Source of the DNA: Nanobdellota archaeon
GTDB lineage: Archaea > Nanobdellota > Nanobdellia > Pacearchaeales > GW2011-AR1
Length of the DNA: 64,000 nt
Assembly: GCA_038045765.1 (NCBI GenBank)
Contig: JBBSXN010000005.1
Location: 30,905 to 94,904 of the forward strand
Direction: 5' to 3'
The notes beneath the pieces were generated by a model that saw nothing but the letters and a program-made list of their open reading frames with translations, had not been told where the DNA came from and did no database searches. Made by a program: the position numbers and the translations under genes. This document shows, in pieces, positions 327 through 19,551 of the stretch (its first letter is position 1; each line of letters begins with the position of its first letter).

Positions 327-686
327 ATGGATGATAATGATAGTTATTTGATAGCTGGAACTTTTGGAGCTTTAGCTATGGGTCTTACTTTTTATCAGGT
401 TCATATGAAACCTATGATTAGATTTCAAAGACAATCTGGATTGAGTTTAAAGAAATTGAATTTAACTCATGCTATGAAATTAGACAGACTGATTAATGTT
501 CTTAATGTAAGTGGTATTAGTGAAGGTAAAAAAGAAGAGTTAGAAGAAACTGTTAGTAGATTACCTCTTCGAGTCCAGACTGCTTTTAAGGAATTTAAAG
601 CATGTTATCAACATCGTGAAGAAGTTGCTAAAGCATTATATAGAAGACCTGAAGTAAGAGAGTATCTTAATGAAAGGGAAGATTAA
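327..686 (+). CDS. hypothetical small membrane protein
   Basis: 119-aa ORF with one N-terminal hydrophobic helix (LIAGTFGALAMGLTFY). TATA-like TTTATAA at 298-304 sits about 23 nt before the ATG. No family recognised. Confidence 0.4.
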   Translation: MDDNDSYLIAGTFGALAMGLTFYQVHMKPMIRFQRQSGLSLKKLNLTHAMKLDRLINVLNVSGISEGKKEELEETVSRLPLRVQTAFKEFKACYQHREEVAKALYRRPEVREYLNERED

Positions 687-1411
687 TCTTCCTGTTCGAT
701 TCTAGGGGCTAAGATGAATGAAAGCATGACATTTCCTGTTGGGAAGTCTATTCTTGCAGGTTTGCTATCTGAAAATGAAATTGTTACTCTGCTTGATATT
801 TTTGAGCCTTTAATAAATTTGTTTAGATATTCTAGAGAATATCTTGCTTTTGAAGTGTCTGAGTAAATTTCTACTTCTTCAGAAGAAAATTCTGCTTTTG
901 CTGAGTTTAATCCATGTGCTTCCAATGTGAATCTATTAGGCTCTGAGAAGAAAGTACAGGCATCTGAAACTACTAAGCAATCTTCAACTGCTTCTGTAAA
1001 TGCTTCTGAGTCCATTTTTATAACTGATTTGAATTCGAGATTAAGAAGTTCTTTTTCTTCTGCATCTATGTCTAATAAAGCTAATGTGAAGTCTCTCTTT
1101 ATTCTGTCGTGTATTCCTAATTTAAGAAAATTTTCTGCCTTTTGAATAGTTAATGAACTTCCTGGCTTACATCTTCTTAAAACTGCTTTAAGATTATCAA
1201 GATTAAGACCTAGAGAGTGCTCTTGAGAAACGTCAAATTGAATGAATAAATCTGAAGGTATTCTAAAGTGAACCATAGCTACATTTGCAGGGTCAATTGC
1301 TGTTAATTGAAGGCCTGTGGAATTAACCTTTAATCTTACCTCTGTAACGAGTTCAGATATGATGCTTATAAGGTCTGAGAATAATTTTGGATTTTCAAGT
1401 TTTAGTTGCAT
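683..1411 (-). CDS. pcn: DNA polymerase sliding clamp PCNA
   Basis: 242 aa, the two-domain PCNA size. N-terminus MQLKLENPKLFSDLISIISELVTEVRLKVNSTGLQLTAIDPANVAMVHF fits the archaeal PCNA pattern. Acidic C-terminal end. Confidence 0.85.
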   Translation of the reverse strand: MQLKLENPKLFSDLISIISELVTEVRLKVNSTGLQLTAIDPANVAMVHFRIPSDLFIQFDVSQEHSLGLNLDNLKAVLRRCKPGSSLTIQKAENFLKLGIHDRIKRDFTLALLDIDAEEKELLNLEFKSVIKMDSEAFTEAVEDCLVVSDACTFFSEPNRFTLEAHGLNSAKAEFSSEEVEIYSDTSKARYSLEYLNKFIKGSKISSRVTISFSDSKPARIDFPTGNVMLSFILAPRIEQED

Positions 1412-1524: not shown

Positions 1525-1563
1525 CATAATAAATGCTATAAAGTGAGAAAGATGGTAATTTTA

Positions 1564-3165
1564 ATGGAAGATAAGTCTAATTTGAAAGAGGATAGAATAA
1601 GAGCGATTACTAAATTATATTATTCAAATCCTAAAGTTCAGCAAGTTTTACTTGAATTTGCTCAAAATAGAGAAACTGTTCCAAGATATTTTGAGGGATT
1701 TGGAAAAAGACCCGATACATTGCAATATATATCAGATATTATGAATTTGGTAAATAAGGGCGCTACTAGCTTTCATGCATCTGAAGAAATATGGAATGAT
1801 CCTCTCTTACTTAATACTGATTTAAGTGAAAAAGAATATAATGAAATAAGGAAAGGTTGGGATTTACTTATTGATATAGATTCACAATGGTTAGATTTCT
1901 CAAAGATTGCTGCAAGACTTTTAATTGAACAACTTGAAAATTATGGTATAAAAAATTATGGTATTAAATTTTCTGGAAGCAAAGGCTTTCATATAATCAT
2001 TGGAAATAAAGCCTTTCCTAAAGAGTATGAAGGAGAGAAAATGAAAGAAAAATTCCCACAGTGGCCTAGGGCAATTTGTGAATATTTAATGAGTCAAATA
2101 TTACCTAAATTTAATAAAGAAAATAGGAGTATCACAGATATAGCTGCTTTAGAATTAAGAACAAATAAAGATAGAAAAGAACTTATGGATGTCGTCTGTC
2201 CAGAATGTGGTAAACCTGTTGTAAAAGATAAAATGATAACTTTCAAGTGTGATTACTGCTCAAATGAAATAAGACTGAAGTATAGTATAATCGCAAAAAA
2301 AAGAATTATGAGGTGCGAAAGGTGTGTCGGTGAATTGACTAAAATACATGAAGAAGAATTTTTAGAATGTAAAAATTGTGGAATTTCTAATATTTCAAAA
2401 ATGAAAGATAATAACTTTGGAATAACTAAACATACTAAAGATGCTTTGGTAGAGAATGTTTCAGAAATGAATGAGAATATTCATAATTCAGGAGGGTTTG
2501 ATTTAGTTCTTGTAGCTCCGAGACATTTATTCAGAATGCCTTATTCTTTGCATGAGAAGACTTCTCTTGCGTCAGTTGTATTAACTAAAGAAGAACTGAG
2601 TAGTTTTAACCCGAAAGATGCAGATCCTATGAAGATAAATATAAGAAATTTTCTTCCAAGTAATTTCGAAAATGAAGCTGGAAGGCTTTTGAAAGATGCC
2701 TTACACTGGAAAAAAGCTAAAGATGCCGAAGAAGAAAAATCAAATAATAATAGATTTCAGGGAAAGAGTTTTGAAAAAGATAAAAAAGACAAAGAGTATG
2801 AAGAATTTAAGTTTGAGAATGTAAATGAAAAAGATTTCCCAGAGCCTATTAAAAAACTGCTAAAAGGATTGGAAGATGGTAAAAAAAGAGGATTATTTAT
2901 TTTAATAACTTTCTTGAGATGTATTAATTATACTCCTGAACAAATTAATGAATTGTGTAGGGAATGGAATAAGAGGAATCCTATTCCATTAAAAGAAGGA
3001 TACATAAGAAGTCAGATTGAGTGGCATTTGAAACAAAAGAGAAAAATACTTCCCCCTAATTATGCTAATGATAGTTTCTACAAAGATTTAATGCTTCTTG
3101 ATAAAAAACCAGAGACAAAGAATCCTTTGGTTGATATGATTAGGAATGTGAGGAATAAGAGATAA
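1564..3165 (+). CDS. priS: archaeo-eukaryotic DNA primase catalytic subunit with double Zn-ribbon insert and PriL/PriX-like C-terminal helical domain (fused form)
   Basis: AEP motifs DLLIDIDS (DxD), SGSKGFHII and APRHLFRMPYSLH. Four CxxC pairs (CPEC, CDYC, CERC, CKNC; nt about 2196-2385). C-terminal KKRGLFILITFLRCINYTPEQINELCREW resembles the PriL-CTD 'R..F.L..FL...G....I' helix. Start moved to ATG 1564, 21 nt after CTATAAAG (1536-1543). The ORF-track start at 1543 is GTG; ATG 1552 is an alternative. Confidence 0.75.
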   Translation: MEDKSNLKEDRIRAITKLYYSNPKVQQVLLEFAQNRETVPRYFEGFGKRPDTLQYISDIMNLVNKGATSFHASEEIWNDPLLLNTDLSEKEYNEIRKGWDLLIDIDSQWLDFSKIAARLLIEQLENYGIKNYGIKFSGSKGFHIIIGNKAFPKEYEGEKMKEKFPQWPRAICEYLMSQILPKFNKENRSITDIAALELRTNKDRKELMDVVCPECGKPVVKDKMITFKCDYCSNEIRLKYSIIAKKRIMRCERCVGELTKIHEEEFLECKNCGISNISKMKDNNFGITKHTKDALVENVSEMNENIHNSGGFDLVLVAPRHLFRMPYSLHEKTSLASVVLTKEELSSFNPKDADPMKINIRNFLPSNFENEAGRLLKDALHWKKAKDAEEEKSNNNRFQGKSFEKDKKDKEYEEFKFENVNEKDFPEPIKKLLKGLEDGKKRGLFILITFLRCINYTPEQINELCREWNKRNPIPLKEGYIRSQIEWHLKQKRKILPPNYANDSFYKDLMLLDKKPETKNPLVDMIRNVRNKR

Positions 3166-3201
3166 AGAAAAGTATAAAAGTTGAATGTATTGTTATTTTT
3201 A

Positions 3202-4533
3202 ATGAAGTTTATTAAATGGGCTACGCGTCCAAGTGCAGTTCAAAGAGAGACTCCAGTTGCATTCTATATGACTCTGAATGGTTTAAAACAGTTCTATGTA
3301 ATCCCTGTTGACCTGGAAAAATCAGATTATTATGTTGAAAAAGAATCTTACTTTAAGCTTTTAGATAAAATCATGTCTGAAGTTATGGTTAATCCTGAAA
3401 AGCATCTAGTAGATTATAATAAGGCTGGTGAAATATTTATAGAAAAAGCTAAAAATGTTTTTAAAAATTTAAATTCTTCACCGAAAGACTTATTGAAAGC
3501 TTACGAAGAATATTTTAACTATGTTACCGAATATAGTGTGTATTTCATAGCTACTTTTGCTGCTGAAGAAATTATCGTCCCGAGGCTTGAGGCTTTATTC
3601 AAAGATAAAATGGTCCTCATCACTTCTCCTGGTAAGCCCCTTACTTATCAGAAAATGCAAAGGGCATTATTTGAAAAGAGTTTAGAAGAAGTAAAAAAGG
3701 AATATGGGTGGATGAATCTCTATAATTATCAAGAAGAGGAGTATGATTTAAATTACTTTAAAGAATTAAAGAAGAACTTATCTAAAGAAAAAGTTGATAA
3801 AGTTTTTGAAGAAATAGAAAAGAATAAAGAGGATTTTAACAATTTTTTAAGTACTGTTAATGATAAAAAAATCAAAGAGCAAGTTCATCTTATGCATGAA
3901 TATGCATTTATTAAAACAGATAGAGTAGATTATTGGAGAAGAGCACAATCTTATGTTGTGCATTTCTTTAGGAAATTAGCTAAAGAAAATAATCTTAATA
4001 TAAAAGAAACTACAAATCTGACTTTAGAAGAAATAAGTGATATTATCTTAAAAAAAATAATTCCGGATAAAAAAAGTCTTAAGTTGAGGGCAGAAAAAAG
4101 ATTTGTTATGAGCATGCAGAAAAATAAAGTTGCTTTAATATATGATGAAAAAGAAATTGATAAAATAAAGAAAATGGTTGAAGATAAAATTGTTAATCAA
4201 ACAGAGTTTAAGGGTGTAACTGCGTGTGGAGGATATGCTAGAGGACCTGCGAAAATAATTACTGATAAATCTAAGCTTAATAAGATAAGAAAAGGAGATA
4301 TCTTAATAAGTATCTGGACCACGCCAGATTATTTGACTGCTATGCATCTTGCTGAAGGCATAATAACTGAAGAGGGTGGCTTAACGAGTCACGCAGCCGT
4401 TACCTCTAGAGAACTAAAAAAACCATGTATTATGAATATTAAGAATGCCAGTAAGATAATAAAAGATGGTGATTTAGTTGAAGTTGATGCTGATAAAGGG
4501 ATAGTTAGGATATTAAAGGAAAGAGATAAATGA
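3202..4533 (+). CDS. PEP-utilising-enzyme mobile (swivel phosphohistidine) domain protein, no ATP-grasp domain (paralog 1)
   Basis: The C-terminal ~105 aa read GGYARGPAKII...GDILISIWTTPDY...EEGGLTSHAAVTSRELKKPCI...GDLVEVDADKGIVRIL, which is the PPDK/PEPS swivel His domain. The N-terminal ~330 aa are helical and lack a GGK ATP-grasp motif. Start moved to ATG 3202 (AGTATAAAAG at 3171-3180). Confidence 0.7.
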   Translation: MKFIKWATRPSAVQRETPVAFYMTLNGLKQFYVIPVDLEKSDYYVEKESYFKLLDKIMSEVMVNPEKHLVDYNKAGEIFIEKAKNVFKNLNSSPKDLLKAYEEYFNYVTEYSVYFIATFAAEEIIVPRLEALFKDKMVLITSPGKPLTYQKMQRALFEKSLEEVKKEYGWMNLYNYQEEEYDLNYFKELKKNLSKEKVDKVFEEIEKNKEDFNNFLSTVNDKKIKEQVHLMHEYAFIKTDRVDYWRRAQSYVVHFFRKLAKENNLNIKETTNLTLEEISDIILKKIIPDKKSLKLRAEKRFVMSMQKNKVALIYDEKEIDKIKKMVEDKIVNQTEFKGVTACGGYARGPAKIITDKSKLNKIRKGDILISIWTTPDYLTAMHLAEGIITEEGGLTSHAAVTSRELKKPCIMNIKNASKIIKDGDLVEVDADKGIVRILKERDK

Positions 4534-6047
4534 AAAAGCTTACAAAAGCAGAAATTAATTTAAAAGAATGGGAGTTTGAATTTCTCCAGAGAAATAAAAA
4601 TTGTATTTTAATGGCTGATTTGCATTGTAGAGGGCTTTATAATAACTTCAAGACAGAAATTAAATTAGATGTAGAACCGTATGATTATATATTTACTAAT
4701 TTTGATAAAGGATATGTAAAAAAGGCTAAGAAAGCTAAAGTGCTTAATCTTTTAAGAAAAGCCAGTGAAGATCATCTATATTTAGAATATGTTTTTAAAA
4801 ATAGTCTATTGAAAATGCAGAATCTGGATAAAGTAATGAATGAGCTTAATTCAAAAATAAAAATGCCTATGAATGATGGTGAACTGACTGATTTATGGGA
4901 AAAATTTGAACAAGGTTATCTAGAAGCAATGCCTTGGTTTTATATTCCATGGTATCTGTCAGAAGAGAATATCTTGACAGATAAAGTAAAGAATAAGTTA
5001 AATAAATATAAAAAAGAGATAGAAAAAATAACGGATTTTGACGAAGCTCTTAGAATTCTTATATTTCCTATAAAAAAAGCTGCTTTTCAAGAAGAACAGG
5101 AATTATTTTTTGAATTACTAAAAATAGCTGAAAAAGATGTGAGTTTTGAAAAAGATAAAGAGTTTAAAGAAAAAATGCAGATTTATCTTAAGAGATTTTC
5201 CTTTTTTCCAACTTTCTATTTTCTACCTATTAGCCCTACAAATGAAAAGATTTTGATAAAAAATATCAAAGAGGCTATGAAAAATAATTTCAAAGTTGAT
5301 TTTGAAATTAAAATTAAGATGCAGATGGAAAATGCCAGAAAATTAAAAAAATTAATGCAGATTATTAATAATGATATAGCCTTGATTAAGGATATTGAAC
5401 TTGCTAGGGAGTTGGGTTGGGTTTTGACAGCGAGTGTTGATGAAGCCCATAGGGCTGGCTCTAAATTTGCTCCTTTTCTTAAAAAAATAGAAGGGAGTAT
5501 TGGAATAAAAAGTGGAAATATTATATTTATGACTTCTAATGAAATAAAATTAGGTCTAAGCAAAAAAGGAGTAGAAAAAATTGATTTTGAAAAAAGAAAA
5601 ATTGGTCAGATATTTGCTTGTTTAAATGGAGAGATATTTGCCGAATTTGGTGAGAAGGGCATTGAATTAAGTAAATGGATTGAGGAATCAAATCAAAAAC
5701 AAAATGTTAATATTTCTGAATTTAAAGGACAGTCTGCCTCAAAAGGATTTGTTCGTGGTAAAATAAAACTTGCTCTTCTCCCAAAAGACTCGTATCGATT
5801 AAAAGAAGGCGAGATTTTGGTTTGTTCTATGACTAGCCCCGATTATGTTCGGGCTATGAAAAGAGCGGCTGCAATAATCACAGATGAAGGAGGTCTTCTT
5901 TCACACGCAGCGATCATGTCTCGTGAATTTGGTAAACCCTGTATTATTGGAACTAAAATTGCAACTAAAGTTCTTAAAGATGGTGATTTAGTTGAAGTTG
6001 ATGCTGATAAAGGAATTGTAAGAATACTCCAAAAGAATAAAGATTAA
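4530..6047 (+). CDS. PEP-utilising-enzyme mobile (swivel phosphohistidine) domain protein (paralog 2, tandem)
   Basis: ATGA overlap with paralog 1. Motifs GQSASKGFVRGKIKL...GEILVCSMTSPDY...DEGGLLSHAAIMSREFGKPCI...GDLVEVDADKGIVRIL. The 38-nt block 5976-6013 is identical to 4462-4499. Confidence 0.7.
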   Translation: MKKLTKAEINLKEWEFEFLQRNKNCILMADLHCRGLYNNFKTEIKLDVEPYDYIFTNFDKGYVKKAKKAKVLNLLRKASEDHLYLEYVFKNSLLKMQNLDKVMNELNSKIKMPMNDGELTDLWEKFEQGYLEAMPWFYIPWYLSEENILTDKVKNKLNKYKKEIEKITDFDEALRILIFPIKKAAFQEEQELFFELLKIAEKDVSFEKDKEFKEKMQIYLKRFSFFPTFYFLPISPTNEKILIKNIKEAMKNNFKVDFEIKIKMQMENARKLKKLMQIINNDIALIKDIELARELGWVLTASVDEAHRAGSKFAPFLKKIEGSIGIKSGNIIFMTSNEIKLGLSKKGVEKIDFEKRKIGQIFACLNGEIFAEFGEKGIELSKWIEESNQKQNVNISEFKGQSASKGFVRGKIKLALLPKDSYRLKEGEILVCSMTSPDYVRAMKRAAAIITDEGGLLSHAAIMSREFGKPCIIGTKIATKVLKDGDLVEVDADKGIVRILQKNKD

Positions 6048-6072
6048 TAAACTTGATAAAACAAATTAAATA

Positions 6073-7110
6073 ATGGCTGAAAATAAAAGGGGAAGTTTTT
6101 CTGCAGATTATATTAGACATAGTAAGGCAGGGTATCCCACATATGCAGGCATAATGATGAGTGATGATCCTACTGCTCCTTTTAATCCTGAGAGGCAAGT
6201 GGAAAGAGATTTAACTCCTGATGGAATTAAAATAGCTCAAGCATCTGCTAGAAAATATTTTGATAATCTGGATCCTAAAAAAGATAAGTTGTATATGCTT
6301 GCAAGTAATGAAGTTAGAGCTTTAGAAACTGCGAAAGTTTACAAAGATGAGGCTATTAGCCGAGGATTTACAATCATCTCTGTGCCTAAACAGGAGAATG
6401 ATATAGGTTATAGGATTACGGGAGGAGGTGTAAGGACTTCGAGCAAATTATCTATAAATTCAAAGAACTTAGTAGCAGATAATGTTTTCATGCCTGCTGA
6501 TAAAAGATTCAAAGTCAATTCTGATAAACTTGCTCCTGAAGTAAGAGCAAAATATCAACAAGCTTTAGCCATAGTTGATAGAGATAATAAGGGAAGTTAT
6601 GGTGCTAACTTGGTCGCTTATGGAGATGAAGTTAAGAAATTATTCCCTGAAGTTAGAACTTCTGAACAAATAGAAAAAGAAAAACTTGGTGTTTTAATAA
6701 ACACATTTGGAAATTATTCTAAAAGACATCAAGAGAGTGGAGCTGCAGATCATATTAAAGTTTTAGCATTTGGACATCAGGACCAGATGGTTGGATTCTT
6801 AAATAGGAATTTTGGTAAGGCTGAACTAGATAATTGTGAAGCTGTGAGTTTTAACTTTGATAATGCTGATAGAAAAGTAGAAGTATCCTATAGAGGGGAT
6901 AAGAAGAAATTGGAAGAGAGATTTTTGATTTTGGGTGCTTTAGGCTCGCTTATGTTCTCATTGATTGGAAGTTTATATCCGAGTTTGACTGGTTTTGCTA
7001 TTGCCCGGGAAAAATTGTTTGAAGTAGGTAGCTTTAGTGAGCTCTGGTTTGTAGTAGGGATGATATTATTTCTAAGTCTCACGATTAGACAGATAAAATA
7101 TAGTAAATAA
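6073..7110 (+). CDS. histidine-phosphatase-superfamily protein with C-terminal double TM anchor
   Basis: Motifs YIRHSKAGY (RHG-type), LTPDGIKIAQASARKYF, LASNEVRALETAKVY (compare SSPxxRAxQTA) and LAFGHQDQMVGFL (second His). The last ~60 aa form two hydrophobic helices. Confidence 0.5.
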   Translation: MAENKRGSFSADYIRHSKAGYPTYAGIMMSDDPTAPFNPERQVERDLTPDGIKIAQASARKYFDNLDPKKDKLYMLASNEVRALETAKVYKDEAISRGFTIISVPKQENDIGYRITGGGVRTSSKLSINSKNLVADNVFMPADKRFKVNSDKLAPEVRAKYQQALAIVDRDNKGSYGANLVAYGDEVKKLFPEVRTSEQIEKEKLGVLINTFGNYSKRHQESGAADHIKVLAFGHQDQMVGFLNRNFGKAELDNCEAVSFNFDNADRKVEVSYRGDKKKLEERFLILGALGSLMFSLIGSLYPSLTGFAIAREKLFEVGSFSELWFVVGMILFLSLTIRQIKYSK

Positions 7111-7156
7111 AAATCTTCTCGGGAAGATTTTTAAAGAAGTAAAGCATCTGAAAAGT

Positions 7157-9064
7157 ATGAAAAGAGGATTTCTCCTGATTGGTATTTTTGTCTCATTTAT
7201 GTTATTGATCATGGGAGTTCATGCGCAAGCTAATAATTCTGGAAATTCTGGAGGAGTTATAGCGAGTGGAAGTGGTGTTAATGTAAATAGTGCTGCCGAT
7301 AAAGCATACGCTTGTTTGAAGGAACAGATAGATGATAAAAGAGAATTATCGCTTGAAGAGGCAATATTTAGTGCTCTGGCTATTGGAAATTATGGAAATG
7401 TCTCTAAAGTTATTGATAATGGAAAGAGTGCTAGTGAAAACTGCTGGCCTAAGAATGGATGTAAATTAAAAGAAACTGCGCAAGTTGCTTTGGCTTATCA
7501 ATCAATGGGAAAGAACACTGATGGTATAAAGAGCTGGTTGCTTTCCAAGTCAAAAAATGCTATTGATTTAGCATGGTATCTTGAAGTTGGAATTGAAAAT
7601 CAAAAAGCTAGTGAATGTACTTTGAAATATGATGCTGGAAATTATAAAATAAATATTGATGCTGACCAGAAAATAACGGGAAGTTCTGGTCCGTGTTTAA
7701 GTGTAAGTAGTTCTGGATATTTACTTAAAGTAAGGAATACTTGTTTAGATAGAACGTTTGAAGTTAGTTGTAAAGAAAGTTTTATTTCAACTTTAATTTA
7801 TCAAAGAGATTTAGGAAATGGTGCTGATTGCCTTGATGAAAATAACTTGACTTGTTTTGTATTGCCTGATACACATTCTGCTTCTTCTCTTGGAACTACA
7901 AGTGAAAAAGTTGATGCGCAATGCTTTACAACTGGAACTAATTGTGACTTTGAGGGAACTTTATGGACTACCCTTGCTTTAAATAAATTAAATGCTAGAA
8001 ATAATGCTACTAGGACTCTTCCTTATTTAACAGCTTTAATTAATGATTATAAAAGATATATGCCTGAAGCTTTTCTTCTAATATTGACTGGAAATGATGA
8101 TTATTATAATATATTAATACAAAATAGAAAGCAGGGACTTTATTGGGAAGCTGATAATAGTTTGAATAATAGATTTTATGATACTAGTGTGGGGATGCTT
8201 GGAATTGGAAGTAGTTCTTCAAAATCTGAGATTGCTTCAACCCAAGGTTATCTTGCTGGAATTCAGACTAAAGAGGGTTGTTGGAATAATAATAATGTAA
8301 GAGATACTGCATTTATACTTTATAGCGGTTGGCCTAAAAATACTATAAAATCTGGGGGAAGTGGGGGAAGCGATGCTCTTTGTCAAGAAGCTGGATTTTC
8401 ATGTGAGAGAATTGGAGATTGTCAAAATGCTGGTGGAAATGTATTAGATAATTTCCAGTGTGTTGGCGTTGGAAAGTGTTGTTCAATTAAAATAGAAAAA
8501 GCGAGTTGCAGTTCACAAAATGGAAATGTCTGCACTTTAAGTCAGGAATGTAATGGGAAGAATGTTGAAAGCAAAGAAGGTGCTTGCTGTGTTGGAAGTT
8601 GTGTTGCAATAACAAGTAATGTATGTGAATTGGCTACTGATGCTTTATGTAAGAGCGAGTGTGGAGATGGAGAGGTAGCTACGAGTGATAGTTGTGGAAG
8701 CTCGGGAGGGGTGTGCTGTGTTGTATTCAAAGAAAGTAGCGGAAGTAATTGGTGGATATGGGTTCTTGTAGTATTAGTCTTGTTAGTTATATTAGGAATT
8801 GTCTTTAAAGATAAATTAAGATTGTTCTTGTTTAAATTTAAAAATGATGTAAAGAGTGAAAGTGTTAGTCGACCTGGGCCAAGTAATAATGCTGGTAGGC
8901 CTGCAGGTCCTGGACCAAGACCTCTAACTGGACCAAGATTTGGTTCTCCTCCAAGAAGCATGCCTCCACAGAGAGCACCAGTCAGACCATTACAAAGATT
9001 AGGAAATACTGTTGATAAAGAAATGAGTGAAACACTTAGAAAATTGAAAGAAATGAGTGAATAG
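7157..9064 (+). CDS. surface protein: signal peptide, alpha/alpha-toroid (prenyltransferase/terpene-cyclase-like repeat) ectodomain, three Cys-rich knots, TM helix, Pro/Arg-rich cytoplasmic tail
   Basis: Signal MKRGFLLIGIFVSFMLLIMGVHAQA. Repeat-like GYLAGIQTKEGCWNNNNVRDTAFILYSGWP. Three C-x4-G-x-C...CC modules at nt 8381-8725. TM WWIWVLVVLVLLVILGIVF. Tail SRPGPSNNAGRPAGPGPRPLTGPRFGSPPRSMPPQRAPVRP. Confidence 0.5.
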   Translation: MKRGFLLIGIFVSFMLLIMGVHAQANNSGNSGGVIASGSGVNVNSAADKAYACLKEQIDDKRELSLEEAIFSALAIGNYGNVSKVIDNGKSASENCWPKNGCKLKETAQVALAYQSMGKNTDGIKSWLLSKSKNAIDLAWYLEVGIENQKASECTLKYDAGNYKINIDADQKITGSSGPCLSVSSSGYLLKVRNTCLDRTFEVSCKESFISTLIYQRDLGNGADCLDENNLTCFVLPDTHSASSLGTTSEKVDAQCFTTGTNCDFEGTLWTTLALNKLNARNNATRTLPYLTALINDYKRYMPEAFLLILTGNDDYYNILIQNRKQGLYWEADNSLNNRFYDTSVGMLGIGSSSSKSEIASTQGYLAGIQTKEGCWNNNNVRDTAFILYSGWPKNTIKSGGSGGSDALCQEAGFSCERIGDCQNAGGNVLDNFQCVGVGKCCSIKIEKASCSSQNGNVCTLSQECNGKNVESKEGACCVGSCVAITSNVCELATDALCKSECGDGEVATSDSCGSSGGVCCVVFKESSGSNWWIWVLVVLVLLVILGIVFKDKLRLFLFKFKNDVKSESVSRPGPSNNAGRPAGPGPRPLTGPRFGSPPRSMPPQRAPVRPLQRLGNTVDKEMSETLRKLKEMSE

Positions 9065-9110
9065 ACTCAAGAAAGATTATATTTATATAAGTAATTTGTT
9101 TAGAGAAAAT

Positions 9111-10385
9111 ATGAAAAAAATAGGTATTTTTGCTTTTCTTTTTTTGATTCTATCAATATCATTTGTCAGTGCTATTAGTACCACATTAAAAGAGAATTAT
9201 GATAAGAAAGAAAATATTATTATTGAAGTGAAAGGAAATATATTGAGTCCTATAAATGTGGAAGATATTGAATTTAAGAGAAAAAATGTTGGAGTTCCTT
9301 TAGATTATGGTGTATTGAATTTAGAAGATAAACACTTTATCTGGGCAATTGCACCTGATAAAAACGAGACATATACGCTATTGATAAATAACTTAGAAAC
9401 TACGGTTAATGGACAGAATAGTATGATAAATTATACTCAGAATTTTAATGTTCTTGAAAATCTAACTGATTATAGCATTAAACCTGGAATTATTACTGCT
9501 AAAGGAGATTTTGAAGTTGAGATAAATTCTTATCTAGATAATGAGATAAGCATATTAGTTAATTTCCCTTACGAAAATAATCTTATAATTAAACCAGGTA
9601 ATAATAAGTTTACTTTTTTAACTAATACAATTAAAGAAGATTTGTTTACTTCTATAAGGATCGGTAAATATAGCGTTCCATTAAACTTAGACATTGATGA
9701 TAAAAATACTATTACTAAAAAGAAAGGTATTTATTTTGAGCCAGTTAGTATAAAAAGAGATGTTTCTCTTGGAGATAGGCCGGTTTACTTGATCAAAGTT
9801 AGAAATACTGATGATAAAGCTTATCAAAATATTAAAATAAAATATGATAAGGAAATATTTTTTATTACTCCTGATCAATCATTTAACCTTGATAAACAAG
9901 GGATATTTAATTTCAATCTAACATTCAAAAAAGCCGTTGACAAAAATATAAAAAACCAAGTTGAAATTATATTTGATAATTCTAGTGTTATTTTGCCTGT
10001 TGAAATAACACTAAGTGAAAATGTAATTCCTATAAACACTAATAATAGTGAAGGATTTCAGTATTTCTGTTCTGAACTGGCAGGAGTTAAATGTATATCT
10101 GGAGAAAGTTGTTCTGGAGAAGAAAAAGAAGGATTAGATGGACTTTGTTGTTTAGGGGTATGTCAAGCAGTAGCTGTTGAAGAGGAAGGCAATACTTCTG
10201 AGATAATAGGGTATGTATTGGCATTAGGAATATTTTTGATATTAGGATATCTTATTTATAGATTTAAAAAAGCTAAGAAAGAAGGTAATGATGAAATTAC
10301 TGAAAAACTTGGTCCAAGTAGATTATCGAAAATGAAAGCTGCAGGCATTGTAGAAGAAAAAACTCCTAGAAAAGATCTACCTTAA
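9111..10385 (+). CDS. surface protein with Ig-like regions, one Cys-rich knot, TM anchor and short cytoplasmic tail
   Basis: Start moved to ATG 9111 (MKKIGIFAFLFLILSISFVSA; ATTTATATAA at 9081-9090). Knot CSELAGVKCISGESCSGEEKEGLDGLCCLGVC at nt 10068-10166. TM IIGYVLALGIFLILGYLIY. Confidence 0.45.
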   Translation: MKKIGIFAFLFLILSISFVSAISTTLKENYDKKENIIIEVKGNILSPINVEDIEFKRKNVGVPLDYGVLNLEDKHFIWAIAPDKNETYTLLINNLETTVNGQNSMINYTQNFNVLENLTDYSIKPGIITAKGDFEVEINSYLDNEISILVNFPYENNLIIKPGNNKFTFLTNTIKEDLFTSIRIGKYSVPLNLDIDDKNTITKKKGIYFEPVSIKRDVSLGDRPVYLIKVRNTDDKAYQNIKIKYDKEIFFITPDQSFNLDKQGIFNFNLTFKKAVDKNIKNQVEIIFDNSSVILPVEITLSENVIPINTNNSEGFQYFCSELAGVKCISGESCSGEEKEGLDGLCCLGVCQAVAVEEEGNTSEIIGYVLALGIFLILGYLIYRFKKAKKEGNDEITEKLGPSRLSKMKAAGIVEEKTPRKDLP

Positions 10386-10387
10386 TT

Positions 10388-10900
10388 TTATTTCTTTTTC
10401 TTCTTTGATTTAGGCTTCTTTGATTCTTTTTTCTGTTCTTTACTCTGATCAATTACTTGGTTAGTATTAGGATTCTGTTTGAATAAATGAGGCGCCACTT
10501 CATATAGTTTCTTCATAAGAAAATCTTTCTCTGAAAGAGCATTCTTAGCTATGGCATCATATTGATGCATTCTGTGCATAAGTTGATTAGTCATCTGATT
10601 TAAATCTTGATTTGAAATATTTATCTTTTCAGGATAGCTTATTTCTATGTTCGCAGGCATATAAACGAATAAGAAGCTAAATAGATGGTTCAAAGAAGGA
10701 AGCTCTAACTCAACTTCTACGAATGAAGTGAATAAGTCTTGTGAGTCTTTTACTGGTACTGGTTCATGAATATTATAAGATACAACTTTTAGCTCTTTTT
10801 CTGCCTTCATTTTATCTACTATAATTTTTAATGCATCAGTTACATTTTCTGCAGGTCTTCCTAAGACTTCTAAGATAGTATGAACTTTCAAAGCTTCCAT
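10388..10900 (-). CDS. hypothetical cytoplasmic protein with poly-Lys C-terminal tail
   Basis: 170-aa ORF with no signal peptide. Ends KEQKKESKKPKSKKKKK. Family not recognised. Confidence 0.4.
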   Translation of the reverse strand: MEALKVHTILEVLGRPAENVTDALKIIVDKMKAEKELKVVSYNIHEPVPVKDSQDLFTSFVEVELELPSLNHLFSFLFVYMPANIEISYPEKINISNQDLNQMTNQLMHRMHQYDAIAKNALSEKDFLMKKLYEVAPHLFKQNPNTNQVIDQSKEQKKESKKPKSKKKKK

Positions 10901-10924
10901 TTTCTAAACTGGAATTATTAGTTT

Positions 10925-11575
10925 TTAAAGCTTCCTTAGGATGATGAGTATAATTAGTATTAAAGATAAAAATGCGAAGAAATATGATAAATATAACCTT
11001 ATTTTTGCATCTTTAGATAGGATAGTTTGATTTTCTTTATTATTGAGAAATATCTTATCGTTGGTTATAATCTGGGAGAGATTATCTTGATTTTGTTTGG
11101 AAGAGATTATTTTTTCAGACTGACAGATATTATCCTTGCCTTTTGATGATTCTGAGAGTATAAATGAATCTGGACATTTGCTAAAAGTTAGATTATTATT
11201 CTTTGAGTCTGATAATTCAGGAGTTTGAATTATGGTGTTGTTTTTCTGTTTTAGATAAATTATGACTTTTGAATTATCAAGCCATTGCTTTTGAAAATTT
11301 ATTACTAAATAACCTTCTATCGTTCCATTTAAATTAAAAATATCACCATCTTCGTTTTCAAGATAAAATCCATCTAAGTTAGATAGATTTTCTGAATATA
11401 ATTCAATCCATTCATTTCCAGCATCTGAATCAGCAGGATTTAACTCGATCTCATTTATTGAAATTGATGAAGATAAATGGACTTGAAGAATTATAATGAT
11501 TAGACTAATAACCGTAAGACTTATGAAATGCGAGATTTCCTTCTTTATCGAATAGATATAAAGTGTCTCGGTCAT
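10925..11575 (-). CDS. membrane-anchored lamin-tail-domain (LTD) protein
   Basis: ISINEIELNPADSDAGNEWIELYSENLSNLDGFYLENEDGD is the classic LTD motif. N-terminal anchor LTVISLIIIILQV and C-terminal TM FFAFLSLILIILIIL. First ATG after the upstream gene's domain end is at 11575, still 71 nt inside the upstream gene. The ORF-track start at 11632 is unlikely. Confidence 0.5.
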   Translation of the reverse strand: MTETLYIYSIKKEISHFISLTVISLIIIILQVHLSSSISINEIELNPADSDAGNEWIELYSENLSNLDGFYLENEDGDIFNLNGTIEGYLVINFQKQWLDNSKVIIYLKQKNNTIIQTPELSDSKNNNLTFSKCPDSFILSESSKGKDNICQSEKIISSKQNQDNLSQIITNDKIFLNNKENQTILSKDAKIRLYLSYFFAFLSLILIILIILRKL

Positions 11576-12251
11576 TATTCCAAATATCTGTCTTTTCATT
11601 CCAGAAGATATCTGTTGAGTTATCATTTCCAATTGATGAGTGTAGGGATAGCCTATTTTTGATAATTGTGTTAAATTTATATTGTTTTCTACTCTCGTCT
11701 TTTATAATCCAACCAGACAAATCAACAGAAGCGCATGAATTTTCTATTTTCAAGATTTCTTCTTTAGGATATATTTCTATAGAGATACAATATTTATATT
11801 TAGATTCTTTCCATATCCCTAATTGATTTTCTACTGCTTTTTCTTCTGCTTTATCAAAATCTTTTAATTCTGAGTCGTCAACAAGAAATTTTGAAGCTAG
11901 ACCTAAGTTTATGAGTTCTAGATTAACATAAAGATTATCTTGGGTGTATAATCTTCCTAGAGTTCTTCCATACTTTTCTAGTTTTATTTTATCTAAATAT
12001 AATGATTTATTTATGAAAGATGAAAGGTAGTCTTTTGAAACCTTAGAAGATTCTGAGTCTTTTTCTGGTGAATTTATATTTGCTAATCTAACTGTCTCCC
12101 CTTCTGAAGTTACCAAAGTATCTCCATCTATAACTCTCGCAACTGTGATTGATGTAATTTCATATTTGTCTGATTGCGAGAATAAAAATACTGTATTTGA
12201 AAGAAGAAGAGTTAATAAAAATGCTAATATTATTGCGTGTTTTTTGTGCAT
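11505..12251 (-). CDS. secreted staphylococcal-nuclease (SNase/thermonuclease) - LTD fusion
   Basis: Signal MHKKHAIILAFLLTLLLSNTVFLFS. SNase motifs VIDGDTLVT..GETVRLANINSPE...EKYGRTLGRLY. C-terminal LTD-like SVDLSGWIIKDES...DTLYLFDKEGNL. Confidence 0.7.
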   Translation of the reverse strand: MHKKHAIILAFLLTLLLSNTVFLFSQSDKYEITSITVARVIDGDTLVTSEGETVRLANINSPEKDSESSKVSKDYLSSFINKSLYLDKIKLEKYGRTLGRLYTQDNLYVNLELINLGLASKFLVDDSELKDFDKAEEKAVENQLGIWKESKYKYCISIEIYPKEEILKIENSCASVDLSGWIIKDESRKQYKFNTIIKNRLSLHSSIGNDNSTDIFWNEKTDIWNNDRDTLYLFDKEGNLAFHKSYGY

Positions 12252-12252
12252 T

Positions 12253-12741
12253 TTATAATTTTATTATTAATGGACTGCAATTTAAACTATCTATGTATTT
12301 TTTCAATGAAGCATTATTTATTTCGAGTGTAGATGTATTGATGTTTGGATGAAAACCGGATGATTTTGCCAGCCAAATGTCTTCATCAATAACTAAATTG
12401 ATATTTTTTGCATAAATCATTGTGAATATAGAAACTGAACCAGGTTTAACATTTAATTGTGCTTTTAATTCTTCAGGTGAAGCGAATTTTAATTTATTTA
12501 TATTAAACTTGTCTTTTATGGTATTCATATCTAATCTTTTGAATGCGTTCATGCATATTAGATAAAAATTATCATTTTCATCTTTTAGAAAAAGGCATTT
12601 AGTGTGCATTGCAGGAATACTCTCCTTTAGAGATTTTGATTCTTCTACTCTGAAAACTGGCTGATGTTTGTGCTCTTTGTAGATTATTTTATGCTCTTGT
12701 AAATATTTCTCAAGATTTTTATCCATTGTAATGTCTAACAA
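12253..12741 (-). CDS. YbaK/ProX-type aminoacyl-tRNA editing domain protein
   Basis: 162 aa. HTKCLFLKDENDNFYLI and KPGSVSIF motifs are typical of prolyl-tRNA-synthetase-associated (YbaK/EbsC) domains. Confidence 0.65.
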   Translation of the reverse strand: MLDITMDKNLEKYLQEHKIIYKEHKHQPVFRVEESKSLKESIPAMHTKCLFLKDENDNFYLICMNAFKRLDMNTIKDKFNINKLKFASPEELKAQLNVKPGSVSIFTMIYAKNINLVIDEDIWLAKSSGFHPNINTSTLEINNASLKKYIDSLNCSPLIIKL

Positions 12742-12774
12742 ATGATTTATATAAGTATTTTGATTATTATATAT

Positions 12775-13008
12775 ATGAAAGTTACAGTCTATGGGACTAA
12801 AACTTGTATTTGGTGTGTTAAAACAAGGGAATTCTTAAAAGAACATAAGATTAAATTCAATGATATCGATATTGAAAAGAGTAAAAAGGCTGAAAAAATC
12901 ATGATAAAGATATCTGGACAGGAGGGATTTCCAGTTATCGATATTGGTGGAAAGATAGTTTTGGGGTATGATAAGGACAAGTTAAGAAGATTATTGGCTA
13001 AAAAATAG
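12775..13008 (+). CDS. glutaredoxin/NrdH-like small redoxin
   Basis: MKVTVYGTKTCIWCVKTREFLKEHKIKF...GFPVIDIGGKIVLGYD has a CxxC (CIWC) in a Grx fold pattern. Start moved to ATG 12775. Confidence 0.65.
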   Translation: MKVTVYGTKTCIWCVKTREFLKEHKIKFNDIDIEKSKKAEKIMIKISGQEGFPVIDIGGKIVLGYDKDKLRRLLAKK

Positions 13009-13038
13009 ATTTAAATAATATATTAATTCTGAATTCTG

Positions 13039-14004
13039 ATGAAAGATAAAAATGAAAAATATGATTTTATAATAATTGGTGCTGGAGTAGCTGGCTTGGC
13101 TGCTGCTATGTATGGTGCAAGACTTGGATTAAAAACATTATGTTTAGGTTATACTCATAGTAGTGAGTTATCCATTGGTGGAGTCATTACAACAACTAAT
13201 ATTGTTGAAAACTATCCAGGTTTCATTAAATTAAGTGGGAGTGAACTTGCTGAAGCAATTGAGAAACATGCTAAAAGCTATGAGCTTGTAACTATTCTTG
13301 AAGAGAAAGTTATAGATGTAGAAAAAATAAAGAAAGATTTTTCTGTAAAAACTGAAAATAATGAATATATTGGTAAAACAATTCTATTTGCAACTGGGAC
13401 AAAATGGAGGAAACTGGAAGTTCCTGGAAGTAATGAGTTTGAAAATAAAGGAGTTGCTTATTGTGCTTTGTGTGATGCTCCTTTATTCAAAAACAAGATA
13501 GTGGGCCTTGTTGGAGGGAGCGATAGTGCTGCTAAAGATGCTTTAGTTCTAGCAGAACATGCAAAAAAAGTTTATATTATTTATAGAGGTCAGGAGATAA
13601 GGCCAGAGCCAATTAATCTAAAGAGAGTTTATGATAAAGTTAAAATTGGAAAGATTGAGATAATTAATAATGCTAATGTTAAAGAAATTAAAGGCAGTAA
13701 ATTTATTGAAAAAGTTATATTAGATAGAGAATTTAATGGAAGTAAAGAACTTGCCTTGCAGGGATTATTCATTGCTATTGGACATATCGCTCTTACTGAT
13801 TTAGCTAAGAATTTAGGTGTAAATCTCGATAAGAAAGGTGAGATAATACTAGACCATAAGACTTCTGAGACTAATTTACCTGGAGTATTTGGTGCAGGAG
13901 ACTGTGCTGATAAACCATTTAAACAGGCTATAACTGGTGTAGCTGAAGGTTGCACTGCCGCTTATTCTGCTTATGAGTATGTCAATAATCATCTTAAAGG
14001 ATGA
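13039..14004 (+). CDS. trxB: thioredoxin-disulfide reductase
   Basis: FAD motif DFIIIGAGVAGLAAAMYGAR. Redox-active CALCDA. NAD(P)H motif GGSDSAAKDA. C-terminal GVFGAGDCAD. 321 aa. Confidence 0.85.
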   Translation: MKDKNEKYDFIIIGAGVAGLAAAMYGARLGLKTLCLGYTHSSELSIGGVITTTNIVENYPGFIKLSGSELAEAIEKHAKSYELVTILEEKVIDVEKIKKDFSVKTENNEYIGKTILFATGTKWRKLEVPGSNEFENKGVAYCALCDAPLFKNKIVGLVGGSDSAAKDALVLAEHAKKVYIIYRGQEIRPEPINLKRVYDKVKIGKIEIINNANVKEIKGSKFIEKVILDREFNGSKELALQGLFIAIGHIALTDLAKNLGVNLDKKGEIILDHKTSETNLPGVFGAGDCADKPFKQAITGVAEGCTAAYSAYEYVNNHLKG

Positions 14005-14005
14005 T

Positions 14006-14023
14006 TCTTGAGCATGCTCAAGA
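14006..14023 (+). terminator. perfect 18-bp palindrome TCTTGAGCATGCTCAAGA right after the trxB stop, followed by TTTAT
   Basis: Read directly. Stop TGA at 14002-14004. The arms contain the TCAAGA/TCTTGA core shared with other repeats in the pilus block. Confidence 0.45.
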
Positions 14024-14030
14024 TTTATAG

Positions 14031-14040
14031 AATCTTGACA
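14031..14040 (+). promoter_or_regulatory. AATCTTGACA box upstream of the pilin operon
   Basis: Lies 59 nt upstream of ATG 14099 and upstream of the TATA-like AAGTTTTTAAAG. Confidence 0.3.
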
Positions 14041-14098
14041 CATTAACAAAAACAATTTAACCAATTAAGTTTTTAAAGAATGAAATGTTTCATGCTGG

Positions 14099-14542
14099 AT
14101 GAATAAAAAGGGGTTGTCACCTGCGATTGCTACTGCATTACTTATTTCATTAGCATTGGTGCTTGCTGCTTTGATATTCATATGGGCTAGTAGTTTATTG
14201 AAAGAAAAAAACCAGAAGTTTGGTGAACCTATAGAAAATGCTTGTGAAGATATTAATTTCGCTGCAGAAGCTTATGGTGGACAATTACACATAGTTAACA
14301 GAGGCAAAGTTCCTATACAGAGTTTTGAAATAAAGAAGAAAACTGCTGGAAGTGTTGAAAGCTTGGGAATCATCGAAGGTACGAAAACACTAATAGAAGG
14401 CGAATCAGATGCATTCACATTGGATAGTGTTTCAGCAGGAGATGAGATTCTAGCAACTCCGATTATCTATGGTAAGCAAAAAGGGCAGAGAGCACCTCAT
14501 GTTTGTGATAAAGCTGAATTGAATATTAAAGTTGAAGCTTAA
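14099..14542 (+). CDS. archaeal type IV pilin (class III signal peptide)
   Basis: MNKKG|LSPAIATALLISLALVLAALIF: a short basic leader, Gly, then a hydrophobic helix, as in archaeal DUF361-type pilin N-termini. Small beta-rich C-domain with a Cys pair. Confidence 0.65.
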   Translation: MNKKGLSPAIATALLISLALVLAALIFIWASSLLKEKNQKFGEPIENACEDINFAAEAYGGQLHIVNRGKVPIQSFEIKKKTAGSVESLGIIEGTKTLIEGESDAFTLDSVSAGDEILATPIIYGKQKGQRAPHVCDKAELNIKVEA

Positions 14543-14549
14543 AATAAAT

Positions 14550-15056
14550 ATGATAAATAAAAAAGGTATTTCTAATGTAATTGCGAGTGTTGTTTTAGTA
14601 GCACTTACAATCGTTGCTTTAGTGATTATCGCACAGTTTGTTGTGCCTTTTGTTAAAAATAATTTACAAAAAAGTGGAGAGTGTTTAGATTATCAAAGAT
14701 ATTTTGTGTTAGATAATAGCTTTGGATATAATTGTAAGAAAAATGGAATAGGTTATGTTATCTCTGTTAAAGCCGAAGGGCAAAAAGATCTTGAGGATAA
14801 AGTTAGTGGGTTGAAATTAGTTTTATATAATGGAGCGATTACCACTCCTTTAGAAGTAAAAGATGGGAAAACTAGAGAGGCAACATTCTTTATGATAGAC
14901 CCTGGAAATTTTAAGGTTCCTAAGACTGGAGAGATACGGAGTTATGCATATAATGTTAGTCAGACTTTTGATAGAGTAGAAATATATACATTACTTAAAT
15001 CTGGAAGGACCTGTGAAACTCCGAATGATCAGGGAAGTTTAGGAGCGTGTAGATAA
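14550..15056 (+). CDS. archaeal type IV pilin (class III signal peptide)
   Basis: Start moved to ATG 14550: MINKKG|ISNVIASVVLVALTIVALVII. Cys pair in the globular part. Confidence 0.65.
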   Translation: MINKKGISNVIASVVLVALTIVALVIIAQFVVPFVKNNLQKSGECLDYQRYFVLDNSFGYNCKKNGIGYVISVKAEGQKDLEDKVSGLKLVLYNGAITTPLEVKDGKTREATFFMIDPGNFKVPKTGEIRSYAYNVSQTFDRVEIYTLLKSGRTCETPNDQGSLGACR

Positions 15057-15593
15057 ATGGCTAGTAGAAAGAAAGGACAGATTTGGATTGAAACGGTACT
15101 TTATACTTTGATAGGATTGGCTTTGATAGGTATGATTCTTGCTTTTACTCTTCCCAAGATTACTAAAACGCAAGAAAAAATACTTATTGAACAGACTATC
15201 AGCTCTCTTAAAACATTAGATCAGACAATAAGTAGTGTTGTCTCAAGTGGCCCGGATAATATTAGAAGCTATGAATTAAGCTTTAAAGAAGGAGAATTAT
15301 TTATAGATGGGAGAAATGATAAAATTTATTTCCAGATAGATGATTTAAAGGATTATTATTCACAGCCAGATGTTTCTATTGAAGATGGAAGAGTTAAAAT
15401 ATTATCTTTTGGTAAAGAGGGTGCTTCAAGTGTTAAGCTTGAATTAAATTATACTAATTATGCTAATATTACTTACAACGGTGCTGATGTTGAACAAAAA
15501 ATAACAAAATCAGCAGTATCTTATAAATTTTTCTTAAGTAACTTAGGAAGTCAGAATGGTAATCCGATAAAAATTGATATAAAATTGGGGTAG
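15057..15593 (+). CDS. pilin/pseudopilin-like protein with Glu at +5
   Basis: MASRKKG|QIWIETVLYTLIGLALIGMILAF has Glu at +5 after the predicted cleavage Gly. ATG immediately follows the upstream TAA. Confidence 0.6.
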   Translation: MASRKKGQIWIETVLYTLIGLALIGMILAFTLPKITKTQEKILIEQTISSLKTLDQTISSVVSSGPDNIRSYELSFKEGELFIDGRNDKIYFQIDDLKDYYSQPDVSIEDGRVKILSFGKEGASSVKLELNYTNYANITYNGADVEQKITKSAVSYKFFLSNLGSQNGNPIKIDIKLG

Positions 15594-15630
15594 AGAGAAG
15601 TTTTATATATTGCTAGTGTTTTTAACTAAA

Positions 15631-17154: not shown

Positions 17155-17196
17155 TATTAATGAAAGGTATTTAAAGAATATATCCTTTTTTTTATT

Positions 17197-17358
17197 ATGA
17201 ATAAAGATTACATAAACTCTGTCGCCCATTTACTTAGTGTTATGAAAGAAGATGCTGAAAAATTGGAAGAAGCGGTAGGGAAAAAAGATGCTGAGAAGGT
17301 AGCTAGCTTAAAACAGGAGATTCTTAACTTATATTCACAAATTAACTCTTTAATATGA
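17197..17358 (+). CDS. unannotated 53-aa helical micro-ORF between ATPase and platform genes
   Basis: Own translation: MNKDYINSVAHLLSVMKEDAEKLEEAVGKKDAEKVASLKQEILNLYSQINSLI. Its stop overlaps the next start (ATGA at 17355-17358). Below the ORF-track size cutoff. Confidence 0.3.
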   Translation: MNKDYINSVAHLLSVMKEDAEKLEEAVGKKDAEKVASLKQEILNLYSQINSLI

Positions 17359-18623: not shown

Positions 18624-18624
18624 A

Positions 18625-19488: not shown

Positions 19489-19498
19489 TCTTTTAATG

Positions 19499-19550
19499 TC
19501 AAGATTCTTAAGTGTCGAATCTTGAGCACAGAAAATCAGTAGATTTTCTG
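19499..19550. terminator. double hairpin between convergent genes
   Basis: TCAAGATTC-N9-GAATCTTGA (19499-19525) and CAGAAAATC-AGTA-GATTTTCTG (19529-19550). Both are perfect 9-bp stems, read directly. Confidence 0.45.
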
Positions 19551-19551
19551 G

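Follow-up and report, generated by a model that had tools for sequence, protein, structure and literature searches.

What might be the function of a protein that ends in the mobile, phosphohistidine-carrying domain of phosphoenolpyruvate (PEP)-utilising enzymes, and that has neither an ATP-grasp domain nor a PEP/pyruvate barrel to go with it? This question is raised by a stretch of 64,000 nucleotides (hereafter the window; G+C ~30%) from a Nanobdellota archaeon, comprising positions 30,905 to 94,904 of contig JBBSXN010000005.1. Near its start lie two coupled, paralogous genes, P1 and P2, followed closely by P3, the gene for a putative histidine phosphatase. An earlier reading of this DNA, made from the sequence alone (the sequence-only reading), described the three genes as a possible orphan phosphotransfer module whose donor would have to be supplied in trans. 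Our comparisons point to a more familiar kind of system. Specifically, P1 and P2 appear to be H-type subunits of two-component small-molecule dikinases, rather than members of a new class of phosphorelay. We consider it fairly probable that they and a third paralog in the window are trans-charged subunits of split dikinases of the rifampin phosphotransferase (RPH) family, and that P3 acts on their phosphorylated product or on an intermediate downstream of it. Metagenomes of Hainich groundwater collected on 0.1-µm filters contain proteins that match those of the window exactly or almost exactly, and these carry the NCBI label 'Nanoarchaeota archaeon'; the organism is therefore a member of the DPANN archaea.

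Architecture of the headless swivel proteins

The swivel genes of the window and their candidate catalytic residues are as follows.

3202-4533, plus strand: P1, 443 aa, predicted headless (H-type) dikinase subunit with a helical, substrate-binding-like N-domain (aa 1 to ~330) and a swivel domain (aa 363-433)
4390-4392, plus strand: codon of His397, the predicted catalytic histidine of P1, invariant in 46 homologs
4530-6047, plus strand: P2, 505 aa, predicted headless (H-type) dikinase subunit with a helical N-domain (aa 1 to ~390) and a swivel domain (aa 425-495)
5904-5906, plus strand: codon of His459, the predicted catalytic histidine of P2, invariant in the P2 family alignment
43712-45040, minus strand: third headless swivel paralog, 442 aa, recognised by our own hidden Markov models (HMMs) and by PF00391 (E 9.8e-26), with the motif GGITCHAA

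The open reading frames (ORFs) of P1 and P2 overlap by an ATGA at position 4530, and the sole Pfam match in each protein is the PEP-utilising mobile (swivel) domain PF00391 at the C-terminus (E 5.5e-23 for P1 and 1.2e-26 for P2). The catalytic histidine lies within GGLTSHAA in P1 and GGLLSHAA in P2, accompanied by the motifs TTPDY and TSPDY, respectively. An alternative TTG start for P1 is present at 3181, and gene callers in relatives choose the ATG. Pfam searches of both proteins for the ATP-grasp (PPDK_N) domain PF01326 and the PEP/pyruvate barrel PF02896 give no match, and an ATP-grasp HMM built in this analysis matches neither P1 nor P2. The NCBIfam models for PEP synthase, PPDK, RPH, PigC and PRK08296 cover only the C-terminal 100-250 residues, with scores far under their cut-offs. 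Searches of PDB sequences likewise reach the C-terminal region only, and no Pfam or NCBIfam model matches either N-domain. The tandem pair that the sequence-only reading had proposed, with its C-terminal mobile domains and without either catalytic domain, is thus confirmed. To this pair the window adds the third headless paralog, which shares 35% identity with P1 across 275 aa (BLASTP E 3e-44).

What, then, are the long regions that precede the swivel domains? An AlphaFold2 model of P2 (predicted local distance difference test score, pLDDT, 94; predicted TM-score, pTM, 0.91) is almost entirely helical from residue 1 to ~390, and the swivel domain follows. When this model is compared with the PDB by Foldseek, the top matches are structures of the rifampin phosphotransferase RPH-Lm (5fbt, 5fbu, 5hv1 and 5fbs), with E values of 1e-13 to 1e-14 and a TMq of ~0.5 over ~590-610 columns. 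This match spans both the rifampin-binding and the swivel domains at a sequence identity of ~14%, and the matches ranked below RPH cover the swivel domain only. Profiles of the two families (46 sequences for P1; an alignment of 102 homologs for P2) align over 433 columns in hhalign, from P1 12-443 to P2 25-505, with a probability of 100 and an E value of 1e-76. Because P1 is homologous over its full length to the modelled P2, we assign it the same rifampin-binding-like domain. Each protein is therefore best described as a predicted rifampin-binding-like helical domain joined to a swivel domain, on the strength of the model for P2 and of profile homology for P1. The proposed likeness to the substrate-binding and swivel part of rifampin phosphotransferases is borne out by both comparisons. 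A divergent but complete ATP-grasp or PEP-binding domain, which would have spoken against that likeness, was sought in the N-regions and not found, and the P2 model is all-helical ahead of the swivel.

The closest described systems are phenylphosphate synthase (PpsAB), 4-methylbenzyl phosphate synthase (CreHI) and hydroxyphenylethanone kinase (HpeHI) (PMC12167813). In these enzymes, the H or A subunit carries the swivel and rifampin-binding-like domains, the I or B subunit carries the ATP-grasp domain, and the conserved histidine is essential (PMC12167813). P1 and P2 share with them the union of helical and swivel domains in a subunit without an ATP-grasp, and a catalytic histidine within GGxT/S-S/C-HAA. 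Indeed, each has what marks an H-type subunit, namely a C-terminal swivel domain with its catalytic histidine, a rifampin-binding-like N-domain and no ATP-grasp in the same chain. Because the same split has been published for PpsAB, CreHI and HpeHI (PMC12167813), we predict from sequence and model that P1 and P2 belong to this known kind, and we do not regard the module as unprecedented.

The correspondence has its limits. Whereas PpsA, CreH and HpeH are ~600-640 aa long, P1 and P2 have only 443-505 aa. Also unlike those proteins, they have N-domains that match no Pfam or NCBIfam model, such that models of the PRK08296 type reach only the last ~120 aa, comprising the swivel and the stretch just before it. 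[quoted passage not shown]

Neither of two larger enzyme families accommodates P1 and P2 as members. RPH (5fbt, 5fbu, 5hv1; PMC4844700) is the best structural match of P2 in its helical and swivel domains, and its three-domain order recurs in P2 homologs of ~820 aa, whereas P1 and P2 have no ATP-grasp. The NCBIfam RPH model NF041857 gives them only 58-61 bits, far short of its cut-off of 999, with an alignment to the C-terminal part alone. PEP synthase and PPDK are nearest in the swivel sequence, for which the archaeal PEP synthase 8a8e is the closest relative (E 4e-26). This likeness is limited to ~110-180 residues, and both the ATP-grasp domain and the TIM barrel are missing from P1 and P2. 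The labels 'PEP-utilizing enzyme' and 'PEP synthase' on genes of the P1/P2 type are misleading annotations.

A divergent histidine phosphatase beside the swivel genes

The third gene of the cluster has the following features.

6073-7110, plus strand: P3, 345 aa, predicted divergent branch-1 histidine phosphatase, starting 25 nt past the P2 stop
6118-6120, plus strand: codon of H16, which together with R15, R82 and H235 forms the candidate catalytic core of P3
6919-7098, plus strand: aa 283-342 of P3, containing two C-terminal hydrophobic segments (aa 283-303 and 315-342) located by hydropathy

P3 itself has no match in Pfam, as the gathering threshold of PF00300 is not reached, and neither single-sequence nor profile searches against PDB sequences yield anything meaningful. 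Because these direct searches failed, we draw its family membership from its fold, from weak Pfam matches of its homologs and from an exhaustive profile search. The protein contains the motifs RHS, LTPDG, RALETA and GHQ. All of H16, S17, R82, T86, A87 and H235 are conserved among 16 P3 homologs (H16, R82 and H235 invariantly), as is R15 in at least 90%, within the motifs RHS, RA.ETA and FGH, and this set of residues forms the RH / RA..TA / GH pattern of branch-1 histidine phosphatases. Weak PF00300 matches occur in 8 of the 16 homologs (best E 4.8e-4). The AlphaFold2 model of P3 (pLDDT 82) finds histidine phosphatases or mutases in all 50 listed Foldseek matches in the PDB, with E values down to 2.4e-7 and a probability of 1.0, at modest TM-scores of 0.33-0.57. 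These structural neighbours are histidine acid phosphatases, phosphoglycerate mutases, phosphoserine phosphatase, TIGAR and proteins like them. The exhaustive profile search points to a small family (137 clusters at E<=1e-3, of which 74 reach E<=1e-30), and the weak tail of the search holds proteins that score 29-57 bits on PF00300 and pass its threshold, which provides a transitive link. P3 is accordingly placed in the superfamily that had been proposed for it, and conserved core and modelled fold together predict a catalytically intact but divergent enzyme.

In comparison with PF00300 proteins (dPGM, PhoE, SixA and phosphoserine phosphatase), P3 shares the fold, the N-terminal RH, the arginine motif RA..TA and the second histidine in GH. 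It differs from them in having RHS instead of RHG, an insertion of ~120 aa and, in the clade of the window, a hydrophobic C-terminal anchor. The insertion (aa ~100-222) contains several helices in the model, and from these and the alignment we read it as a putative cap. The C-terminal tail had been described as two transmembrane helices. Two hydrophobic segments are indeed present, where KD19 reaches 1.9, while it does not exceed 0.34 in the rest of the protein. Among the homologs from a word-indexed search, only the five closest, which are archaeal, have this tail, and it is lacking in the other eleven (284-292 aa).

Is the proximity of phosphatase and swivel genes more than an accident of this genome? 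With the P3 profile, we retrieved 26 loci from genomes chosen as species representatives; most of their records bear Patescibacteria or CPR names, and several have another or no phylum label. Six-frame ORFs of these loci were scanned with our HMMs for the helical domains, swivel, ATP-grasp and P3, and the counts given here refer to the 23 loci whose P3 homolog has at least 200 aa. A swivel gene lies less than 200 nt from P3 in 19 of these 23, mostly at less than 35 nt or overlapping, and shares the strand of P3 in all but one (L012) of the 19. Conservation of the adjacency, on which the proposed partnership depended, is thereby established. An ATP-grasp domain, stand-alone or fused, is found within 10 kb in 13 of the 23 loci and adjoins P3 in 7 of those 13. 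In bacteria, P3 usually adjoins a module whose N-domain is short, at ~250 aa (cluster 0, 8 loci). No single module type is always next to P3, as archaeal loci have a P2-type or P1-type module in that position. Outside the archaeal clade of the window, the P3 family is found only in genomes of the Patescibacteria type. Within that clade, the synteny of P1 to P3 is kept down to 62-66% identity.

Phosphatases of other kinds stand at several swivel clusters.

L009, 117-551, minus strand: LMWPc phosphatase
L038, 8066-8506, minus strand: LMWPc phosphatase
L003, 12564-13442: His_Phos_1 protein, non-orthologous to P3
L039, 11612-12211 and 13377-13961 (-): His_Phos_1 proteins, non-orthologous to P3

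The 292-aa His_Phos_1 protein of L003 was considered as a P3 ortholog and is treated as an analogous replacement, since its BLASTP comparison is not significant and the P3 HMM does not match it. The recurrence of such other phosphatases at swivel clusters suggests that phosphatase function, rather than one given protein, is the conserved partner. A role of the cluster as a defence system is unsupported, because the PADLOC defence models match none of P1, P2 and P3.

A phosphatase is also encoded with the kinase of the Hpe pathway, where the HAD phosphatase HpeD dephosphorylates a downstream intermediate (PMC9618137). Unlike HpeD, P3 is of the His_Phos_1 type. We found no description in the literature of a CPR/DPANN subfamily whose N-domains are invisible to family libraries, of its arrays and megaproteins, or of a His_Phos_1-type partner. 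Thus, what is new here is a CPR/DPANN subfamily in arrays of 1-9 modules, its dedicated phosphatase partner, and archaeal loci without a nearby ATP-grasp.

The charging partner and the fate of the phosphate

Comparison with homologous proteins and clusters supports the earlier proposal that the phosphate donor acts in trans. Six homologs of 819-838 aa have a PPDK_N ATP-grasp domain fused directly ahead of a P2-like unit, in the order ATP-grasp, P2-type N-domain and swivel, and stand-alone PPDK_N genes of 311-332 aa lie inside the homologous clusters L005, L011, L016, L022, L023 and L038. For one fused protein (P0059), the sequence context is too short to place the fused forms as archaeal or bacterial. 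Tandem headless fusions are also found, such as P0006, in which a P2-like unit is followed by a P1-like one. Furthermore, megaproteins of Patescibacteria (1399 to >2249 aa) have one N-terminal ATP-grasp domain and then at least three helical-plus-swivel modules in the same chain. Representative arrangements are listed here.

L005: stand-alone PPDK_N of 319 aa between headless genes
L003, 4745-9985: megaprotein of 1746 aa with one ATP-grasp and three swivel domains (three modules counted), after which come genes for a P2-like protein of 509 aa, a headless protein of 344 aa and a His_Phos_1 protein
L025, 12987-17513: megaprotein locus, three modules counted
L028, 2212-6411: megaprotein locus, three modules counted
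L038: stand-alone PPDK_N with six swivel genes, plus an LMWPc phosphatase
L039, 1-6405: megaprotein of >2249 aa, cut by the locus end, alongside three headless genes and a pair of small His_Phos_1 genes
L037 (Woesearchaeota), 4333-19583: nine headless swivel paralogs in ~15 kb, with no ATP-grasp and no P3 found

On this basis, we propose that the system operates as follows. An ATP-grasp subunit, encoded elsewhere in the genome beyond the 64-kb window, would charge His397 of P1 and His459 of P2 in trans. In the known mechanism of the family, the ATP-grasp subunit pyrophosphorylates or phosphorylates the swivel histidine and releases AMP and inorganic phosphate, and the swivel domain then hands its phosphate to a hydroxyl-bearing small molecule held in the helical domain. 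P3 would most likely strip the phosphate from this molecule or from a downstream intermediate, and the phosphate would thus be a transient handle or a trap. We infer the direction of this flow, its dependence on ATP in this organism and the target of P3.

Several observations weigh against this account. Within the window, which covers 64 kb of a contig of ~469 kb, no ATP-grasp is found either by tblastn with the N-termini of fused homologs or by a relaxed HMM search, and the 8-10 kb covered around the genes of the archaeal relatives L001, L010 and L037 yield none either; for this organism, charging by ATP is thus an assumption. The cluster also lacks pathway enzymes, such as a carboxylase or an oxygenase, to which a phosphorylated intermediate would be passed. 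In addition, P3 occurs singly in clusters that have between 1 and 7 swivel domains (23 loci), and it often stands beside an ATP-grasp gene (7 of 13). Both features would fit a target shared by all modules, such as phosphohistidine, at least as well as they would fit diverse products.

If P3 has a target common to all modules, it could, in line with the sequence-only reading, be a SixA-like phosphatase that resets the swivel histidines of P1 and P2 and so gates the flow of phosphate, as its single copy and its place next to ATP-grasp-bearing genes would suggest. SixA, which belongs to the same superfamily, dephosphorylates phosphohistidine proteins. In the histidine phosphatase superfamily, the usual role of a cap is to shape a pocket for small molecules, whereas SixA has no cap and its fold is minimal and open. 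P3, which is twice the size of SixA, has the ~120-aa insertion that we read as a cap, and its top Foldseek matches are small-molecule phosphatases and mutases, not SixA. Moreover, the phosphatase of the characterised two-component Hpe pathway acts on a metabolite (PMC9618137). In view of the insertion, the Hpe precedent and the presence of small-molecule enzymes among the nearest structures, we assign P3 to the phosphorylated small-molecule product or a downstream intermediate, which makes a resetting role less likely for it and, in our estimate, doubtful overall.

The lack of an ATP-grasp near the archaeal arrays, including the nine headless paralogs of L037, leaves room for phosphate exchange that does not depend on ATP. 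The modules of DPANN archaea would then shuttle phosphate among small molecules through the swivel histidine, with P3 as a sink or as a phosphohistidine donor, and there is precedent in HpeH, which alone moves phosphate from a phospho-product onto another substrate (PMC12167813). Set against this, the flanks covered extend to only 8-10 kb (64 kb for the window), and the partners of a split enzyme need not adjoin. Moreover, the clusters of bacterial relatives usually include an ATP-grasp, to which close homologs of P2 are even fused. Transphosphorylation of this kind consequently strikes us as improbable. The same missing partner, combined with the occurrence of the P3 family beyond the archaeal clade only in Patescibacteria-type genomes, might instead indicate that P1 to P3 are a stranded and functionless remnant of a cluster transferred from Patescibacteria. 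A remnant would hardly be expected to have three intact ORFs with conserved catalytic residues, synteny held in the archaeal clade to 62-66% identity, or a dN/dS (ratio of nonsynonymous to synonymous substitution rates) of 0.06-0.22 across P1, P2 and P3 between the window and its sister strain L001, values which show that all three genes are under purifying selection. Because P3 has also gained a lineage-specific, conserved hydrophobic tail, we give this explanation very little credence.

Because CPR bacteria and DPANN archaea, with their minimal genomes, rely on metabolites of their hosts, the genes to which they devote space are informative. Here, split dikinase modules are expanded to three copies in the window, nine in the Woesearchaeota locus and megaproteins of up to >2249 aa in Patescibacteria, and are tied to a dedicated phosphatase. 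Current family libraries recognise neither the N-domains of the modules nor P3. Should the modules act as kinases of scavenged small molecules, they would give these organisms a major metabolic or detoxifying capacity that is so far undescribed, and would also be a natural case of a single charging enzyme that serves many carrier modules. More speculatively, and in our view with a rather low chance of being right as a whole, they might form a modular system resembling the bacterial phosphotransferase system (PTS), with one ATP-grasp charger, many substrate-specific phosphohistidine carriers (1-9 per locus) and a fixed histidine phosphatase. DPANN modules, maybe without an ATP-grasp of their own, could be charged by another donor or could exchange phosphate between scavenged metabolites, and swapping of P2 alleles (see below) would retune the substrate range rapidly.

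Some clusters contain genes of other kinds. Toxin-antitoxin genes (HicAB, ParE/YafQ and AbiEii) lie between the swivel-cluster genes of L005 (9499-9976 and 11878-12138) and L039 (8654-8905 and 12688-13302), and a gene for an EamA-flavokinase fusion sits in the middle of the L037 array.

Strain variation and neighbouring genes

Two short stretches of the swivel genes are identical.

4462-4499, plus strand: 38-nt block, copy 1, at the 3' end of P1, exactly identical to 5976-6013 and encoding KDGDLVEVDADKG
5976-6013, plus strand: 38-nt block, copy 2, at the 3' end of P2, inside the segment 4647-6030 that is exchanged relative to the sister strain

The exact identity of these blocks, which the sequence-only reading had pointed out, holds for the window and is a property of this strain only, since the P2 copy of the sister strain L001 differs at ~9 positions. 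The encoded peptide, KDGDLVEVDA, is conserved throughout the family. Across the aligned tails of P1 and P2, 27 identical codons are observed against 27.6 expected from codon usage, and general gene conversion between the tails is rejected for this reason. A run of 12 identical codons is nevertheless improbable by itself (P ~6e-4), and the identity probably reflects either a short tract of conversion or the border of a segment that recombined.

The distribution of differences between the two strains is very uneven. Of 218 differing positions over 13.5 kb, ~175 fall within 4647-6030 in P2 (10118-11501 in L001). The synonymous rate (dS) is 0.36 for P2, compared with 0.016 for P1 and 0.029 for P3, and this excess indicates that the P2 allele was replaced by recombination. 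The dN/dS of P2 is 0.22.

Other genes of the window that are mentioned in connection with the cluster or the third paralog are listed here.

683-1411, minus strand: archaeal PCNA, just 5' of the P1 to P3 genes
1543-3165: primase, just upstream of P1
41846-42622, minus strand: TrmB-type regulator, two genes from the third paralog

The interval between the PCNA and primase genes (1448-2496) differs structurally from its counterpart in L001 (5451-7967), which has an extra ORF of 497 aa, and the two strains share only 86% identity over the 5' part of the primase gene. The Woesearchaeota array L037 is likewise flanked by two genes of the TrmB family; such neighbours, there and at the third paralog, may hint at sugar-related regulation.

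Two large ORFs, at 7157-9064 and 9057-10385, lie 3' of P3 and have no family match. The product of the first has a hydrophobic N-terminus resembling a signal peptide, cysteine-rich repeats, a C-terminal hydrophobic helix and a proline-rich tail, and both products are probably cell-surface proteins. These genes keep their synteny with P3 in all archaeal relatives and are absent from the bacterial clusters, and because they are syntenic in the archaeal clade only, we leave them out of the module. Further along, the minus-strand ORF at 11505-12251 encodes a protein with a hydrophobic N-terminus, and its counterpart in L001 (16976-17722) is called as SNase plus lamin-tail domain. It is overlapped by another minus-strand ORF, at 10925-11632. 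Finally, the signs of both GC skew and AT skew flip near 42 kb of the window, from positive before this point to negative at 42-58 kb, and this flip coincides with a switch of the coding strand.

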